Positions 1 through 5,197 are shown, counted from the stretch's first letter. The stretch: DNA of 5,197 nucleotides from a virus (IMGVR_UViG_2778261360_000011:1-5197), one strand, 5' to 3'. Translations and numbers: made by a program. The notes: generated by a model not told the origin, from the letters alone.

Positions 1-291
1 GAAGCAGAAAAAGCTTATTATGCTTCCATCGGAAACGATGATCTGGCAGCCTGAGTTCACAGATAAAATACTCTCCAGGAAACCCGGGGCGGTTCATCTT
101 TCGTAGCCAACTACTATGATGCGCTTGGAAACTACATCCGCAATCTTCGTGACCCGTCACGCCCACAGGATGCAGCAACAAAGAGTTATGTTGATGGGGT
201 TGCAGAAACAAACCTGAGCAGAACGCTACGAACTCCAGAACCGATATCAACTTTACCAGGCGTTGAGCAACGTAAGAATAAGATTGTTGCA

Positions 292-1815
292 ATGGATGAT
301 TCAGGAGACCCAATCATGGTTCTCCCGGAATCTGGGAGCGCTACTGATGTCATGTTGCAGCTTGCTGCCACCGATGGGTTTAAAAATATCGGTTCCTGCC
401 CTGATGTGGCCACATTAAGAAATACTGAACCTTCGTCAGTAAACCAGCAAATTATTGTCAGAGGTTATTATAGCGATACCCCCGGTCTTGGAGGTGGGGT
501 GTTCATGTCGTTTGGCAGTTCTGAAGCTGACGATGGTGTGAATATTTTTGTTACCCCCGGAGGTAAGCGCTGGAAGCGAACAGGAAGCCACATCGATATT
601 CCGGTAGAGAATGGCGGCATGATGGTGTCTAGGACGGCTGAGCAAAACAGTGAAGCCTTTGAACGTCTGACCGCATGCCTTCCATATGAAGGAGGTACGC
701 TCAGGCTCAATGGATTTTACGATATTAAGTATGGCGCTATCGTGCCTCCACGTGTCACGCTGGAGGGGTGCGGTATGGATTCCTGTGGATTAATTAAAAC
801 AGGTAACGATATTAAAACCGTTCCGGATCGCATGTGGCAGGGTGTACCACACAGCTTCTCCAAAGACTTTATTGTTGCGGTAGATATGGATAGTGACACA
901 TCAGGTGATTTAAGCGGGACACAAACAAGAAGCACCAGAATAATTGGATTGAGTATTCTAAATACTGCGCCAAATCCTTGTGATTACGGGATATATAGCG
1001 CTATCAGTTACAATGTGCGCCTTCAGGACCTGTATATTCATAGGGTGAAAACCGGTTATCGCACTAGTGATAGCTGGTTGCAGACATGGGCAAACATTAC
1101 TATTCAGGATGTCGTTACTGGAGTTAAAATCGAAGCAGGTGGAACCACATATAATTTAAACAATATTTATGTGAAAACATGTTCAGGTGTTGGATTCGAT
1201 CTTAAAAATCCGACATATAGCACAATGACAGGATGCGCTGTGGATTTTGCAAATGGAACCGCATATAAATTTGTGGATTGCACCGGGATTGTGTTAGATG
1301 GTTGTGGGTGCGAAGAAATAACAGGGACACAGATATATGCTCGGGGTTCTAGAATTTGTATTAATGGTTTTAGAGGGGTAAATCCAAAGAAAGGAGATGC
1401 AGAATCTTTTATACTTGATTCATCTGTAATTAATTTAAACTCATCTTATCTTCCTGATTATGTTGGAGGTGGTACAGATAAATACACCAAGATAAATGCG
1501 GCGGTGATAAATTCGAATAACTCTATATTTCCTGACCATGCAAACAATAAAATCACATGGGGCGGTGTTCAATCCATAATTAATATTCATGATGAAAGAG
1601 GTGGATACTCAGTAACAGGAAATTCAACGTATACTGTTCTTGGGAGGGTTGAGGGAGGGGTGATTACAATACTCTCTCTACTGCCACCTACGGGAGATGC
1701 TAATTTTTACCCAATTGGTACAAGGTGGGAGTTACTGTATCCATCGGCTGTAGGTCCGTACAAATGGATTTTGTTAGCGGATAAAATTTGGCGTGTTGCA
1801 GGATCATCATCGTAA
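292..1815 (+). CDS. Phage tailspike / tail-fiber receptor-binding protein, beta-helix type (probable polysaccharide-binding or depolymerase domain); 5' end unresolved
   Basis: ORF track 292-1815 (507 aa), stop TAA 1813-1815. Translation has the repetitive N/G/T/I-rich pattern typical of right-handed parallel beta-helix tailspike domains (e.g. NLNNIYVKTCSGVGFDLKNPTYSTMTGCAVDFANGTAYKFVDCTGIVLDGCGCEEITGTQIYARGSRICINGFRGVN), with an N-proximal GGGVF motif. Context fits: directly upstream of an O-antigen-modifying acyltransferase. ATG 292 has no Shine-Dalgarno sequence, and the same frame is open and protein-like back to position 67 (NYYDALGNYIRNLRDPSRPQDAATKSYVDG...) with no ATG/GTG/TTG, so 292 is probably not the true start. 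Confidence 0.7.
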   Translation: MDDSGDPIMVLPESGSATDVMLQLAATDGFKNIGSCPDVATLRNTEPSSVNQQIIVRGYYSDTPGLGGGVFMSFGSSEADDGVNIFVTPGGKRWKRTGSHIDIPVENGGMMVSRTAEQNSEAFERLTACLPYEGGTLRLNGFYDIKYGAIVPPRVTLEGCGMDSCGLIKTGNDIKTVPDRMWQGVPHSFSKDFIVAVDMDSDTSGDLSGTQTRSTRIIGLSILNTAPNPCDYGIYSAISYNVRLQDLYIHRVKTGYRTSDSWLQTWANITIQDVVTGVKIEAGGTTYNLNNIYVKTCSGVGFDLKNPTYSTMTGCAVDFANGTAYKFVDCTGIVLDGCGCEEITGTQIYARGSRICINGFRGVNPKKGDAESFILDSSVINLNSSYLPDYVGGGTDKYTKINAAVINSNNSIFPDHANNKITWGGVQSIINIHDERGGYSVTGNSTYTVLGRVEGGVITILSLLPPTGDANFYPIGTRWELLYPSAVGPYKWILLADKIWRVAGSSS

Positions 1816-1822
1816 AAATTAA

Positions 1823-1850
1823 TTGCCAAATTTAAATATACAGCTATTAT
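1823..1850 (+). promoter_or_regulatory. Candidate sigma70-type promoter for the acyltransferase gene
   Basis: TTGCCA at 1823-1828, a 16-nt spacer, then TATTAT at 1845-1850, about 30 nt upstream of ATG 1881 in the 65-nt gap after the tailspike stop. The region is very AT-rich, so a chance match is quite possible. Confidence 0.25.
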
Positions 1851-1880
1851 TTTGCACAATACTATGCATAGGTGCAAAAA

Positions 1881-2855
1881 ATGGATGAGAAAGTAATCAA
1901 TATTAGGGCCGTAGCTGCTATTATGGTTGTAGTTCTTCATATTAATTCGCAGTATTTTTATGACATTACGAGCTACTGGCCTGTTTTCGCTTTGATTGGT
2001 TCAGCAATGCGGCCATGCGTGCCTATTTTTATAATGATTTCAGGGTATTTATTGATAGGAAGAGTTATCAGTTCAATTGATTTTATGAAGAGAAGAATAT
2101 CAAGACTTCTTCCTCCAATATTATTTTGGGGGGTGTTTTATGTTTTTTTTGTATCATTTGTTGGAAACGCACAAGTTTCAATAAATTCACTCATGTCAAT
2201 ATTAATTGATCCTCCAATGTTTCATCTATGGTATCTTTATTTGATTGTTGGCGTTTATCTCATGATGCCTATTTTATCATCTTGGTATTTGTCGGCATCA
2301 TTTGGTGATAAGATTTTTTATATTTCGCTTTGGTTTGCATGCCTGCTTGTTGCTCAGTTTGGCCTTGGTGTTGAAATTATAAATAGATATTATCTTGGTC
2401 AATTTTCAACATACTCGTTTTATTTAATAGTGGGTGCTTTTGTTAAGGAAATTTCATTTAAGTACAATGTAAGATGGTCTGTTCCAAGCATGGTTTATAT
2501 TCTAATTACATTACTAATAACAACTCTTACGATTTATGACTGTTATAATAATGGAGCGCCGTCAGAGAAGTATTATGAATACACAAATCCAATGGTTGTT
2601 CTTCAATCAATATTTCTATTTATGGCGTTAATTAAGCTTAACAAATCAAATTGGTTTACAAAAGTTGTTTCAAATTATTCCCTTGGAGTTTATTGTGTTC
2701 ATGTTGCGATAATATTACTAATATTCCCTACAATAAAGACAACAATAGATAATGCATTCCTTTCATACTTTGCATCTATTTCTTTAGTTCTGATCTCATC
2801 AGTTATAATTAGCTCAATTATCAGATTGGTTCCTTTTATAAAAAGTGCATCGTGA
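1881..2855 (+). CDS. Acyltransferase family 3 (AT3) integral-membrane O-acyltransferase, probable phage-encoded O-antigen acetylase (serotype conversion)
   Basis: ORF track 1872-2855. ATG 1881 is preferred over GTG 1872 because AGGTG at 1869-1873 sits 7 nt upstream of it. The protein is strongly hydrophobic with about 10 predicted membrane-spanning segments. It carries an N-terminal R-x10-H motif (NIRAVAAIMVVVLH) and an xSGY/F motif (FIMISGYLLIG), both characteristic of AT3 acyltransferases such as phage O-antigen acetylases. It has no C-terminal SGNH domain. GC is roughly 25-32% in lines I counted by hand, far below the flanking lysis genes (about 53%). Confidence 0.85.
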   Translation: MDEKVINIRAVAAIMVVVLHINSQYFYDITSYWPVFALIGSAMRPCVPIFIMISGYLLIGRVISSIDFMKRRISRLLPPILFWGVFYVFFVSFVGNAQVSINSLMSILIDPPMFHLWYLYLIVGVYLMMPILSSWYLSASFGDKIFYISLWFACLLVAQFGLGVEIINRYYLGQFSTYSFYLIVGAFVKEISFKYNVRWSVPSMVYILITLLITTLTIYDCYNNGAPSEKYYEYTNPMVVLQSIFLFMALIKLNKSNWFTKVVSNYSLGVYCVHVAIILLIFPTIKTTIDNAFLSYFASISLVLISSVIISSIIRLVPFIKSAS

Positions 2856-3109
2856 GTGCTTTAGTTGCATGAGACAAAAGCGGGACACACAAGGCTTTGC
2901 ATTGGTAACTGAATCCTCTGTACCTATCACATTGTCGTGGCACCTTACAAAGTTAGGCATCAAAAGCCACGTCATAGCTATGGAGCCAGAAAACACCTCA
3001 CCTATTCAGAATGTTTTTAGGGATTTCAATTAAACCATATATGTATTAATTGTGTATGATGGACTCACCAACTAAGGTGGGTCTTTATGCACAGTAAACG
3101 GTGGTTTCT

Positions 3110-3514
3110 ATGTCAGTTCAACTAACCAGTGAAACATTAAATCAATGGCTTAGTCTTGGTTCTCTAGCTGCGGTGATAGCAGGAGTACCTCCAGAAGTAG
3201 CGTTGGGGTCTTTGTCAGGAGCGGTAATTTTTGTTACCTCTGCGGTAGAGTACCCAATTAGTCGTCGCGTACTCTTGTCGATGCTTAGCTTTCTCTGTGG
3301 GCTTCTTTTCTACAAACCAGCAGCATCAATTCTTATAGGCGTAGCTAGCCTGATCCCTACTATCACGCAGGACTCTTTCGAGAAAGGGGTTGTTTTCTCT
3401 GCTGGCGCATTCGTGTCAGCAATCGTCGCAGTACGAATTGGCATCTGGCTCTATCACCGTTCCGATAATCCACGTGAGTTAATTCCGGGGAGAAAAGACG
3501 ATGGCAACGTATGA
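3110..3514 (+). CDS. Small multi-pass membrane protein (134 aa), putative holin-like, antiholin or lysis-accessory protein
   Basis: ORF track 3101-3514 (GTG start). ATG 3110 is preferred because GGTGG at 3100-3104 sits 5 nt upstream. Four to five hydrophobic segments (WLSLGSLAAVIAGV, ALGSLSGAVIFVTSAV, VLLSMLSFLCGLLFY, AASILIGVASLIPTI, VVFSAGAFVSAIVAVRIGIWLY) and a charged C-terminus ([19 protein letters not shown]). Its stop (TGA 3512-3514) overlaps the next gene's start by 14 nt. Function is inferred from position and topology only. Confidence 0.5.
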   Translation: MSVQLTSETLNQWLSLGSLAAVIAGVPPEVALGSLSGAVIFVTSAVEYPISRRVLLSMLSFLCGLLFYKPAASILIGVASLIPTITQDSFEKGVVFSAGAFVSAIVAVRIGIWLYHRSDNPRELIPGRKDDGNV

Positions 3515-3809
3515 GCTTTTTTTTCTTATCACCAATGCAGTTATTTGTACTGGCATAGCAATTCGCGTTGTCACATTTCGGCGTAACGGGTCACAACACC
3601 GAAGATGGGGAGGGTGGCTTGCTTATTTCCTGATTGTTGCTGCGGCCAGTATTCCTGTTCGTGTCGCCTATGCAATCTGGTTACGCACGCCAATGGCTGT
3701 GGATTTATCTGAGGTCATTATCAACGCTGTCATGCTCGCTGCGGTTATTAAAACGCGCGGTAACGTCGTTCAAATTTTCAAAGTATCGAGGTCTAAACAT
3801 GGAGATTAA
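3501..3809 (+). CDS. Putative holin (102 aa, 2-3 transmembrane segments, basic C-terminal tail)
   Basis: ATG 3501 is preceded by GGGGAG at 3487-3492 with an 8-nt spacer. Hydrophobic segments [42 protein letters not shown] and [19 protein letters not shown], a basic loop ([11 protein letters not shown]) and a charged C-terminus (KVSRSKHGD). It lies immediately upstream of the endolysin and overlaps its start by 11 nt. Confidence 0.65.
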
Positions 3810-4344
3810 ACAATTCCAGCGAGCTGCTGGTATTAGCGAGGCGCTGGCCGCACGCTGGTTTCTGCATATCACTGCTGCCATGAATGAGTTTGGCATTATC
3901 AAACCAGATGACCAGGCGATGTTTATCGCGCAGGTCGGGCATGAGTCCGGAGGATTTACCCGGTTACAGGAAAACTTCAACTACAGCGTTAATGGACTGT
4001 CCGGGTTTATCCGTGCCGGACGCATCACGCCGGACCAGGCCAGCACGCTGGGACGAAAAGCATATGAGAAGTCTCTGCCTCTGGAGCGCCAGCGTGCGAT
4101 CGCCAATCTGGTGTACAGCAAACGCATGGGGAACAATGCCCCTGGTGATGGCTGGAATTACCGAGGGCGCGGACTTATCCAGATTACCGGTTTGAATAAC
4201 TATCGTGATTGCGGAAACGGCCTGAAGGTTGACCTGCTGGAGAGCCCTGAACTGCTGGCGCAGGACGAATATGCGGCTCGTAGCGCGGCGTGGTTCTTCG
4301 CCAGCAAAGGATGCATGAATATACCGGCGATATTGCACGTGTAA
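3799..4344 (+). CDS. Endolysin, glycoside hydrolase family 19 (class I chitinase-like lysozyme); as encoded the ORF is 3'-truncated by an apparent -1 frameshift
   Basis: ATG 3799 with GAGG at 3788-3791, 7 nt upstream. The 236-aa ORF 3634-4344 in the track is an upstream extension artefact that overlaps the holin out of frame. The protein has GH19 hallmarks: GHESGG with the likely catalytic Glu at residue 49, a second Glu nine residues later (LQENF), [12 protein letters not shown], and AAWFFASKG. There is no signal peptide or signal-anchor-release (SAR) segment. The frame ends at TAA 4342-4344 (181 aa), but the conserved GH19 C-terminal block ([18 protein letters not shown]...KVLAV) is encoded in the next frame from 4323 to TGA 4425-4427. 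Confidence 0.85.
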
Positions 4345-4423
4345 CTCTGATTATCAATGGTGGCCGGAACGGCATCGACGACCGGCGCGCGCGGTACATC
4401 ACTGCCAGTAAGGTGCTGGCGGT

Positions 4424-4906
4424 ATGATCTGGGCATTCGCAAAAGCATACTGGAAACAGTTGGTTATCATGGCGATGCTTGCTGTTCTGGTCATATCAGG
4501 AGTTGTAGCCTGGAATGCACACGGCAGTCGTCAGTACGATGCCGGGTATGCGCAGGCGAAGAAAGACCGCAAAGCTGAAGATGAGATAGTTCGTCAGCAC
4601 TACGAACAGGAGAAATCGATCAATGAACGTGAAGCGCAGCATAGGATCGACCAGGCGCGCAATGATGCTCTTGATGCTGCCGCTCGCGCTGGCCGGTTGC
4701 AGCAACAGCTCGTTGCCATCCGTGAGCAGCTCAGGCACTATAACGCCATTGTCGGCGCTGGGTCGTCAGCCGCAGACACCGGAGTTTTGCTTTCCGACGT
4801 GTTCAGCAAATCTCTCGAGAGAAATAGACAACTGGCAGAGTATGCTGACCGGGCATCCGAAGCCGGAAGAGTCTGCGAAAAACAGTACGACACCCTGACC
4901 AGATAG
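4424..4906 (+). CDS. Rz-like inner-membrane spanin (i-spanin)
   Basis: ATG 4424 is the first start after the in-frame stop at 4409-4411, with AAGGTG at 4410-4415 upstream. N-terminal transmembrane segment (LVIMAMLAVLVISGVVAW) followed by a long charged, coiled-coil-like periplasmic region rich in Q/R/E/A (RIDQARNDALDAAARAGRLQQQLVAIREQLR) and a C-proximal Cys. It sits last in the lysis cassette. Confidence 0.8.
   Translation: MIWAFAKAYWKQLVIMAMLAVLVISGVVAWNAHGSRQYDAGYAQAKKDRKAEDEIVRQHYEQEKSINEREAQHRIDQARNDALDAAARAGRLQQQLVAIREQLRHYNAIVGAGSSAADTGVLLSDVFSKSLERNRQLAEYADRASEAGRVCEKQYDTLTR
4623..4898 (+). CDS. Rz1-like outer-membrane lipoprotein spanin (o-spanin), fully embedded in the +1 frame of Rz
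   Basis: ORF 4623-4898 lies entirely inside the Rz gene in the +1 frame. AGGAG at 4607-4611 precedes ATG 4623. Signal peptide with a lipobox (MMLLMLPLALAG-C, then Ser at +2), and a Ser/Pro/Thr-rich mature part. Alternative starts are the ATGs at 4662 and 4665. Confidence 0.7.
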   Translation: MNVKRSIGSTRRAMMLLMLPLALAGCSNSSLPSVSSSGTITPLSALGRQPQTPEFCFPTCSANLSREIDNWQSMLTGHPKPEESAKNSTTP

Positions 4907-5062
4907 CATGGCATTTTTCACGGTACTGATTTCCGGTGACGGTATATAAAACGGTACGGGAAAAATTGAGATTTGGAAAAATGTTATCACTCAATTGGTT
5001 ATGGTTATCGTAAATAATTGAGTGGGAATGATTTGACCCTGCACTATGAATGAAATAAATAT

Positions 5063-5086
5063 CCTCCGGCATAGCCGGAGGTTTTT
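5063..5086 (+). terminator. Rho-independent (intrinsic) terminator downstream of the lysis cassette
   Basis: Perfect 8-bp GC-rich stem (CCTCCGGC at 5063-5070 pairing with GCCGGAGG at 5074-5081), a 3-nt loop, then TTTTT at 5082-5086. An A-rich tract (AAATAAAT) precedes the stem, so it could also terminate transcripts from the opposite strand. Confidence 0.75.
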
Positions 5087-5197
5087 CAAATGCGCCTATA
5101 AGGCTCTCTTACCAGCCGCGCCCTAACAGGCGCACACGATCTGACATTTGCATCCAACTTCGTTACTTACGGCCCGTAAACGGGCTGCCCGGATAGG

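Follow-up and report, generated by a model that had tools for sequence, protein, structure and literature searches.

The right arms of phages phiV10 and epsilon15 (genus Uetakevirus) and of the yfgI-site prophages of APEC17 and APEC-O117H42 have a common gene order: tailspike, acyltransferase, two holin-like genes, GH19 endolysin, Rz/Rz1 and attachment site. In E. coli O157 and Shigella, insertions of IS1203/IS629 knock out both prophage genes and virulence genes. O-acetylation by the phiV10 acyltransferase, Oac, stops phiV10 infection (PMC11854483). GH19 endolysins of the muramidase type include the SPN1S endolysin (PDB 4OK7) and PaGH19Lys (PDB 9EOI), the active-site residues of the latter being listed in PMC12329726.

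The same gene order is found in the DNA analysed here, the whole of which (5,197 bp) we refer to as the window. It corresponds to the complete E. coli draft contig NJZW01000081.1 (5,197 bp) and is identical to the assembly sequence L004. Overall, we consider it highly probable that the window is a Uetakevirus-type arm beside yfgI that has recently become defective via ordinary mutation, namely an IS insertion in the tailspike gene and loss of a G from the endolysin gene.

Identity and boundaries of the prophage arm

Comparison of the open reading frames and Pfam matches with annotated phiV10 and E. coli prophages revealed the right-arm synteny of the Uetakevirus type, with tailspike, conversion gene, holins, GH19 endolysin, Rz/Rz1 and att in succession. 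phiV10 is 86% identical to the window across 44% of the window's length. The lysis cassette is 84–91% identical at the DNA level to phiV10, epsilon15 and E. coli prophages, the values for epsilon15 being 84–85%. Closer relatives are provided by two Logan contigs, L010 (SRR8350812_250) and L009 (SRR5904127_304), which are 99.5% and 97.1% identical, respectively, to window positions 95–5054 and have the same integration site. These prophages encode an uninterrupted 700-aa tailspike and a 209-aa endolysin, and their host flank is free of IS200C; the upstream structural genes are present on the same sibling contigs. This synteny and homology identify the window as the right-hand portion of a prophage beside yfgI in an IS-rich E. 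coli, the phage being a temperate podophage of the epsilon15/phiV10-like (Uetakevirus) type. Its right-hand boundary is made up as follows.

4907..5033, + strand: prophage right end to the attachment-site junction (homology to free phage phiV10 ends at ~5033, and that to E. coli prophages runs on)
5034..5055, + strand: host chromosome flank, yfgI side of attR (identical in APEC17, APEC-O117, L009 and L010)
5056..5197, − strand: end of IS200C (IS200/IS605 family), inserted in the host flank (identical to E. coli IS200C copies)

The IS200C segment contains the 3' end of tnpA on the minus strand, with its stop codon at 5163–5165, and a hairpin at 5063–5081; in strain 2009C-3133, the IS200C copy next to bcsG has the same sequence as positions 5056–5197. 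A BLAST match starting at 5036 would assign the host flank to IS200C, but we rejected it as a gapped over-extension, since the alignment places the beginning of the element at ~5056. The window is thus bounded by IS repeats at both ends, which is where the assembly broke. An Rfam scan of the entire window at a permissive E-value returned one spurious lncRNA match only (E=0.15), and an RNA element was accordingly discarded as a cause of the frame breaks described below. A literature search on the assembly accessions found no mention of them.

The tailspike gene is interrupted by an insertion sequence

The initial annotation had described two −1 shifts consistent with single-base deletions, one in the tailspike 5' region at 85–95 and the other in the endolysin gene at 4318–4322. 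The first of these proved to be something else: the discontinuity lies at 96/97 and is an IS junction.

1..96, + strand: right end of an IS1203/IS629-like insertion sequence of the IS3 family (thousands of E. coli copies, with the annotation 'IS3-like element IS1203 family transposase', match at 99–100% identity)
97..99, + strand: TCT, right-hand copy of a 3-bp target-site duplication (from the left junction on sister contig L017 and the uninterrupted sequence of L009/L010)
97..1815, + strand: tailspike codons 129–700, neck and beta-helix receptor-binding part (99% identical over its whole extent to P0001/P0002, which are intact 700-aa proteins)

Right ends of IS3-family (IS1203-type) elements that match positions 1–96 with 99–100% identity occur 23,841 times in complete genomes of E. 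coli. Positions 1–54 encode the transposase C-terminus, EAEKAYYASIGNDDLAA, the stop codon occupying 52–54, and ...GGTTCA closes the terminal inverted repeat at 96, in keeping with the 5'-TG...CA-3' termini of IS3-family elements. Alignment with the flanks of other IS copies breaks off after ~96–100, and tailspike homology to relatives begins only at ~95–97. A frame-2 open reading frame ending in a stop codon, MLPSETMIWQPEFTDKILSRKPGAVHLS, was rejected as the 5' end of the tailspike gene because it sits within the IS terminus. The window holds only the last 96 bases of the IS1203-like element.

The matching left junction is found on sister contig L017, the end of which reads ...AAGCCATCT followed by TGAACCGCCCCGGG, the second part being the IS left end, which is preceded by TCT. 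The uninterrupted site in L009 and L010 is AAGCCATCTTTCGTAGCC. The two junctions come from contigs of two assemblies in one accession series, and it is very likely that the genome from which the window derives shares both the L017 left junction and a separate 2-bp deletion that L017 carries further 5', at tailspike codon 16/17. On the sister contig, the prophage also contains the end of an IS66-family element, further upstream. The predicted N-terminal tailspike fragment of 129 aa had no exact match, because in this lineage, owing to the 2-bp deletion, the gene caller had begun at an internal start and output a product of 114 aa, which homology search recovered. The motif TCTT, common to three IS copies after the IS end, was considered as a target preference and rejected, since these matches ranked top through chance likeness of their flanks to the query.

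The tailspike part at 97..1815 has zero internal stops and carries a precomputed Pfam match to PF27114 and a weak match to Beta_helix; intact 700-aa relatives occur in complete prophage arms that also encode a 209-aa endolysin. Judged by these alignments, the tailspike gene is split by the IS at codon 129 of 700 and parted from its N-terminal particle-binding domain. The element resembles known IS1203/IS629 (IS3 family) insertions in its terminus, ...CCCGGGGCGGTTCA, its 3-bp target duplication and the C-terminus of its transposase.

A single-base deletion truncates the endolysin

The second break is a genuine deletion, so that one of the two single-base losses proposed earlier stands and the other is replaced by the IS insertion with its 3-bp target duplication.

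3799..4344, + strand: frameshifted GH19 endolysin open reading frame, 173 native and 8 aberrant residues (NIPAILHV, then stop; residues 1–173 identical to L010)
4319..4320, + strand: site of the 1-bp deletion, G missing, codon 174 AAG to AA (alignments to five intact relatives; L005)
4320..4427, + strand: out-of-frame endolysin remainder, 35 residues if translated, including conserved I186, N187 and R196 (alignment)

Comparison with five intact relatives (APEC17, APEC-O117, phiV10, L009 and L010) shows that the G after 4319 is absent, AAG TAT having become AA TAT. It is the sole indel relative to L010 across 4,960 aligned bases, in which there are 26 SNPs. Programmed frameshifting was considered and rejected, since the gene is a single frame in all relatives and the site is without a slippery run. 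Differently truncated versions of the endolysin occur in Logan assemblies.

Could both breaks nevertheless be systematic deletion errors of the assembly, in a prophage that is really intact, as the initial annotation had allowed? The window is a short draft contig, drafts do contain indel errors, and the other truncated forms in Logan would fit such a picture. However, the first site is an IS junction with no deletion, and its complementary left junction, with the matching TCT duplication, lies on a separate contig. The endolysin deletion is a lone indel in ~5 kb, falls outside any homopolymer run (AAGTAT), and is reproduced base for base in L005, a 1,305-bp scaffold from an unrelated metagenome that is 100% identical across the site. 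Support for the deletion consists of agreement between assemblies, among which those of Logan and NCBI may share reads and the independent one is the ENA metagenome. The recurrence of the same deletion in that independent scaffold makes an assembly error unlikely, and taking the two sites together we regard the artefact explanation as barely credible.

The GH19 endolysin is shortened by the deletion from 209 to 181 residues, the last 36 native residues (174–209) being lost. The catalytic glutamate pair, E49 and E58, aligned to E51 and E60 of 9EOI, is kept in the retained part. The complete GH19 catalytic fold is absent, the helices at the C-terminus having gone together with the conserved active-site residues that they bear, I-N-G-G and Arg; the lost I186, N187 and R196 align to active-site residues I187, N188 and R197 of PaGH19Lys. 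The reconstructed intact protein aligns to the SPN1S endolysin over residues 1–208 (E=2.5e-124), whereas the product encoded in the window stops after residue 173 plus the 8 aberrant residues. The gene is a GH19-family pseudogene, and by homology to these muramidase-type enzymes its product has probably lost activity.

The acyltransferase, holin and spanin genes are intact

The earlier view that the remaining genes are undamaged is borne out by their lengths and identities relative to L009 and L010 and by Pfam.

1823..1850, + strand: sigma-70-like promoter candidate for oac, TTGCCA-16 nt-TATTAT (consensus match only, 10/12 positions)
1881..2855, + strand: oac, acyltransferase-3 family gene, putative O-antigen O-acyltransferase and lysogenic-conversion moron, 324 aa, intact, 31.6% GC (PF01757, E=7e-40)
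3110..3514, + strand: holin-like membrane protein (Phage_holin_8), 134 aa, intact (PF16931, E=1e-10; length as in relatives)
3501..3809, + strand: holin (Phage_holin_3_7), 102 aa, intact (PF05449, E=5e-27; identical to L010)
4424..4906, + strand: Rz-type i-spanin (DUF2514), 160 aa, intact (PF10721, E=1e-41; 1 aa differs from L010)
4662..4898, + strand: Rz1-type o-spanin, inside Rz in another frame (ORF list and translation; phiV10 has an rz1-like gene at the same place)

The acyltransferase-3 membrane domain of Oac is full length, covering PF01757 profile positions 6–325 of 326. The protein is 100% identical to that of L010 and 29% identical to phiV10 Oac; across L009 and L010 it is identical to the window's protein or differs by 1 residue. 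The promoter candidate, 30 nt ahead of the ATG of oac, is the best promoter-like site of the window. By its position adjacent to the tailspike gene and by analogy with phiV10 Oac, the enzyme may acylate the host O-antigen and block adsorption of the cognate phage. Truncated Oac variants occur within its protein cluster.

In the lysis cassette, the signal peptide of Rz1 carries the lipobox LALAGC. In the sequence ATGA, the start codon of Rz and the stop codon of an intact endolysin gene overlap, and the early endolysin stop removes this stop/start overlap.

Is the conversion gene retained by selection?

The initial annotation had read the damage as sparing a surface-modification gene while virion and lysis genes were hit, and had suggested a defective or domesticated prophage. 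The lesions and the intact oac gene are real, and a defective prophage is supported. The pattern itself lies within chance. Only 1 of 5 lysis genes is damaged. If 2–3 lesions fall at random over the 4.9 kb of coding sequence, oac, which makes up 20% of it, is spared with P ~0.64–0.51, so that an untouched oac is the chance expectation.

Selective domestication, in which selection on the host lineage preserves the O-antigen acyltransferase and favours destruction of virion and lysis functions, would account for an intact Oac that matches the protein of an intact relative at 100% and has its own promoter-like site. In another lineage (L011), the same module of tailspike C-terminus plus oac survives next to amiD as a remnant, and phage acyltransferase morons are able to benefit host fitness, as is known for neaT (PMC3573123). 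Against this, divergence from intact prophages is only 0.1–0.5%, with 0–1 substitutions in oac relative to them, too few for a selection test, and a dN/dS test is therefore impossible. Although dispensable to the host, the holins and spanins are just as intact as oac, the protein cluster includes truncated Oac variants, and sparing by chance is well within expectation. We therefore judge domestication by selection to be unlikely, if with a small chance of being right. The lesions being very recent, the intactness of oac is best explained by recency of decay and not by demonstrated selection.

A related idea is that the tailspike receptor-binding domain and oac (~634–2905, with a fixed right boundary at 2905) form a self-contained 'serotype cassette' that is swapped between epsilon15-like and P22-like podophages and preferentially kept by E. 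coli after decay, as in L011 and the window. We think the cassette quite improbable. If true, it would imply selection at the host level for the modified O-antigen, and perhaps also for inactivation of the lysis and virion functions linked to it. Complete genomes of E. coli, searched for the tailspike-oac module to survey its states of decay, gave 4 partial tailspike matches and zero oac.

Discussion

The course of events that we propose includes transposition of an IS1203/IS629-like element into the tailspike gene at codon 129 of 700, which would have duplicated TCT and separated the N-terminal virion-attachment domain from the receptor-binding beta-helix. Loss of a single G at endolysin codon 174 would have given a product without its last 36 residues, three conserved active-site residues among them, and the 2-bp deletion in the tailspike 5' part and the upstream IS66-family element, both seen on the sister contig, would be further lesions. 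Any virions produced would be expected to be without functional tailspikes and, after holin triggering, murein degradation would not ensue. The low-GC acyltransferase-3 moron, with its own promoter-like site, would presumably still be expressed from the lysogen and still modify its O-antigen.

E. coli genomes commonly carry several prophages, and GH19 and other endolysins are widespread; other prophages of this IS-rich genome might thus supply tailspike and endolysin in trans and leave the element mobilisable, which would be compatible with everything in the window. However, a tailspike needs its cognate N-terminal domain for docking on the virion, and the prophage has the IS66-family insertion further upstream. 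We hold such complementation to be very improbable. The sequence data support instead the view that the element is an ordinary decaying, defective prophage.

The main value of the analysis lies in correct annotation, as the mechanism revealed is not new. The tailspike gene should be annotated as interrupted by an IS1203-like element and not as frameshifted, the endolysin gene as a frameshifted pseudogene, and the contig ends as IS repeats. The locus adds to the cases in which transposing IS elements and small deletions have rapidly inactivated a prophage of an IS-rich E. coli. The retained conversion acyltransferase could matter for the O-antigen serology and phage susceptibility of the lineage.

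Comparison with phiV10, epsilon15 and the APEC prophages shows that the tailspike N-terminal region and the chromosomal flank are held in common with the window, whereas the acyltransferase and the receptor-binding tailspike part differ, and oac is oriented opposite to the oac strand of phiV10. The window differs from these elements also in its IS-interrupted tailspike gene and its frameshifted endolysin gene.

Composition of the contig

Draft contig NJZW01000081.1 (assembly GCA_002461335.1) is identical to the window over its complete length, and NCBI names the window proteins as Escherichia coli. The gene order, obtained from an ORF listing, Pfam and annotated relatives, runs from a tailspike fragment through genes for an acyltransferase-3 protein, for two holin-like proteins (Pfam families Phage_holin_8 and Phage_holin_3_7), for a GH19 endolysin and for Rz (DUF2514), within which the gene for the lipoprotein Rz1 (lipobox LALAGC) is nested, up to the end of the prophage. 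These genes belong to the right arm of a podophage resembling epsilon15 and phiV10 (Uetakevirus). In its lysis cassette, identity is 84–91% to phiV10, to epsilon15 and to numerous prophages of E. coli, and its chromosomal flank is the yfgI-adjoining flank of E. coli APEC17 and APEC-O117H42. Homology to phiV10, a free phage, runs out at about 5033, and the E. coli flank carries on up to 5055, where an identical copy of IS200C begins. IS200C is inserted some 22 bp past the prophage/host junction, within the host flank and directly ahead of the yfgI-side terminator hairpin of uninterrupted relatives. The IS repeats at the two contig ends explain the contig size, the assembly having broken at repeats.

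1–96, IS1203-like terminus
1881–2855, plus strand, oac, encoding the acyltransferase-3 protein Oac
2856–3109, non-coding gap of 254 bp separating oac from the first of the holin-like genes
4318–4322, endolysin single-base deletion
4342–4344, premature endolysin stop
5056–5197, minus strand, IS200C with the tnpA 3′ end

Tailspike interruption

The initial annotation ascribed a frame break at 85–95 to a single-base deletion, which proved to be a misdiagnosis. In alignments with three relatives, tailspike homology starts only at about base 95–97, and the upstream bases bear no resemblance to tailspike. Complete genomes of E. coli contain 23,841 matches to bases 1–100 (95–100% identity), carrying the annotation IS3-family or IS1203 transposase; the transposase stop of annotated copies corresponds to window 52–54, and interrupted host genes restart at 94–96. 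The window follows the IS copies through ...CCCGGGGCGGTTCA (96) and tailspike sequence thereafter, which places the frame-2 ORF once taken for the 5′ end of the tailspike inside the terminal repeat of the IS. The likeness of its 'RKP' to tailspike LRKPS is a coincidence.

The intact sequence AAGCCATCTTTCG allowed the left junction to be predicted as ...CCATCT followed by TGAACCGCC, with the N-terminal fragment ending ...LRKPS. The predicted 129-residue fragment was not found by exact protein look-up; a homology search identified P0170, a 114-residue product whose C-terminal end is exactly ...LRKPS. Its contig, L017 (NJVI01000100.1 of GCA_002460945.1), a sister contig from a different assembly, is reported in four samples and ends in ...CTGCGCAAGCCATCT followed by TGAACCGCCCCGGGAATCCTGGAGAC, the latter matching the left end of the IS at 100% identity. 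The left junction in L017 and the right junction in the window together indicate that the element entered the 700-codon tailspike gene at codon 129 by simple transposition, duplicating 3 bp (TCT).

In addition, the 5′ part of the tailspike gene on L017 (3412–3829) has lost 2 bp in a GTGT context at codon 16/17 (GGTGTTACG to GGTTACG), which gives a stop at codon 25; this is a third inactivating lesion beside the IS insertion, outside the window. The other end of L017 (1–88) is an IS66-family terminus, ISEc23/ISEc43-like, from an element whose insertion point in this prophage is upstream of its YafO-toxin/Bro-N moron region.

Endolysin deletion

At 4318–4322, outside any homopolymer run, the window is one G short of APEC17, APEC-O117 and phiV10 (ATGAAGTATACC to ATGAATATACC). 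Near-identical intact prophage arms were found via the tailspike in two Logan contigs, L010 (99.5% identity) and L009 (97.1%), each encoding a 700-residue tailspike, the same 324-residue Oac and a 209-residue endolysin, with yfgI/yfgH flanks. The window differs from L010 by 26 substitutions, and the endolysin G is the sole indel.

Systematic deletion errors in the assembly had been proposed as an alternative source of both breaks. One of the two is an IS junction, however, and the other recurs: in the unrelated metagenome ERZ28645516, a scaffold of 1,305 bp reproduces window 3631–4935 at 100% identity, deletion included, and the exact truncated 181-residue endolysin is present in NCBI, Logan and ENA data. 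We therefore reject assembly error and regard the deletion, upheld by comparison with intact relatives, as a real trait of a circulating lineage. The 90% cluster of the truncated protein (P0121) holds a second 181-residue variant with two substitutions (P0123, ENA) and other frameshifted forms from Logan assemblies (P0122 and P0125, 131 residues; P0126, 89 residues), which may stem either from repeated inactivation or from noise in the assemblies.

Over residues 1–208 the repaired endolysin aligns with structure 4OK7, the SPN1S endolysin (E = 2.5e-124), and it can also be aligned to PaGH19Lys (9EOI), whose active site comprises H50, E51, E60, Y103, Q127, T129, I187, N188 and R197 (PMC12329726). 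In the latter alignment I186, N187 and R196 are the equivalents of I187, N188 and R197, and all three lie beyond codon 174. The frameshifted protein keeps the catalytic glutamates and lacks 36 residues from the large subdomain, these three among them, a strong indication from sequence that activity would be lost. A further effect of the premature stop is to remove the ATGA overlap between the endolysin stop and the Rz start, and translation of Rz may consequently be reduced.

Intact genes and the state of the prophage

The remaining genes were compared with L010; as initially annotated, the acyltransferase, holin-like genes and spanins are intact.

Window proteins compared with L010
Oac, 324 aa, no difference
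Holin-like (Phage_holin_8), 134 aa, 2 aa
Holin (Phage_holin_3_7), 102 aa, no difference
Rz, 160 aa, 1 aa
Rz1, full length, no difference

Tailspike codons 129–700 form an open frame differing from L010 at seven residues and from L009 at only three. Substitutions at 1343, 1541 and 1793 occur in the window but in neither sibling, and all are nonsynonymous in the tailspike (R/A/R in the window, Q/V/H in the siblings), which is compatible with relaxed constraint, three being too few to interpret. Window 515–705 holds 17 of the 26 substitutions relative to L010, and L009 is identical there; tailspike and oac are nearest L009, endolysin and Rz nearest L010, a mosaic that points to probable recent recombination among sibling prophages.

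With its tailspike physically split, and doubly hit in L017, and its endolysin a pseudogene, the prophage is defective. The further proposal, that it has been domesticated with selective keeping of oac, is not established. Divergence from the intact siblings (0.1–0.5%) has left too little time for a selection signal; oac makes up 20% of 4.9 kb of coding sequence, and two to three random hits would spare it with P of about 0.64–0.51; holins and spanins are as intact as oac; and truncated Oac variants occur elsewhere. Thus the initial annotation was right that there are two real lesions in a defective prophage, and wrong about the nature of one of them. Prophage decay through IS insertion and frameshifts, with morons kept, is well known, and the novelty of this finding is low.

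The tailspike–oac module and known systems

Oac spans the whole PF01757 profile. Its gene has a GC content of 31.6% and is preceded by a candidate sigma-70-like site (TTGCCA-16-TATTAT, 1823–1850), the best such site in the window. At megablast sensitivity, oac and the tailspike–oac module are absent from 5,426 complete RefSeq E. coli genomes; 13 contigs from draft assemblies and metagenomes encode the exact protein. The receptor-binding part of the tailspike together with oac (window 634–2905) recurs at about 97.6% identity at other E. coli chromosomal loci, with a fixed right boundary at 2905, inside the gap that follows oac; the gap has no Rfam match.

Tailspike–oac module elsewhere (L011 9908–12131; L012–L016)
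Beside ybhB-bioA
Beside a P4-type integrase
Truncated remnant abutting amiD (L011)

In P0003/P0013 the tailspike C-terminal domain is joined to a P22-type head-binding N-terminus, which suggests that the module has been swapped between podophage lineages. Gene position and the example of phiV10 suggest that Oac, which shares only 29% identity with its phiV10 counterpart, may modify the O antigen. In phiV10, reinfection is reported to be blocked by O-acetylation (PMC11854483), and a phage acyltransferase moron that benefits its host has a precedent in neaT (PMC3573123).
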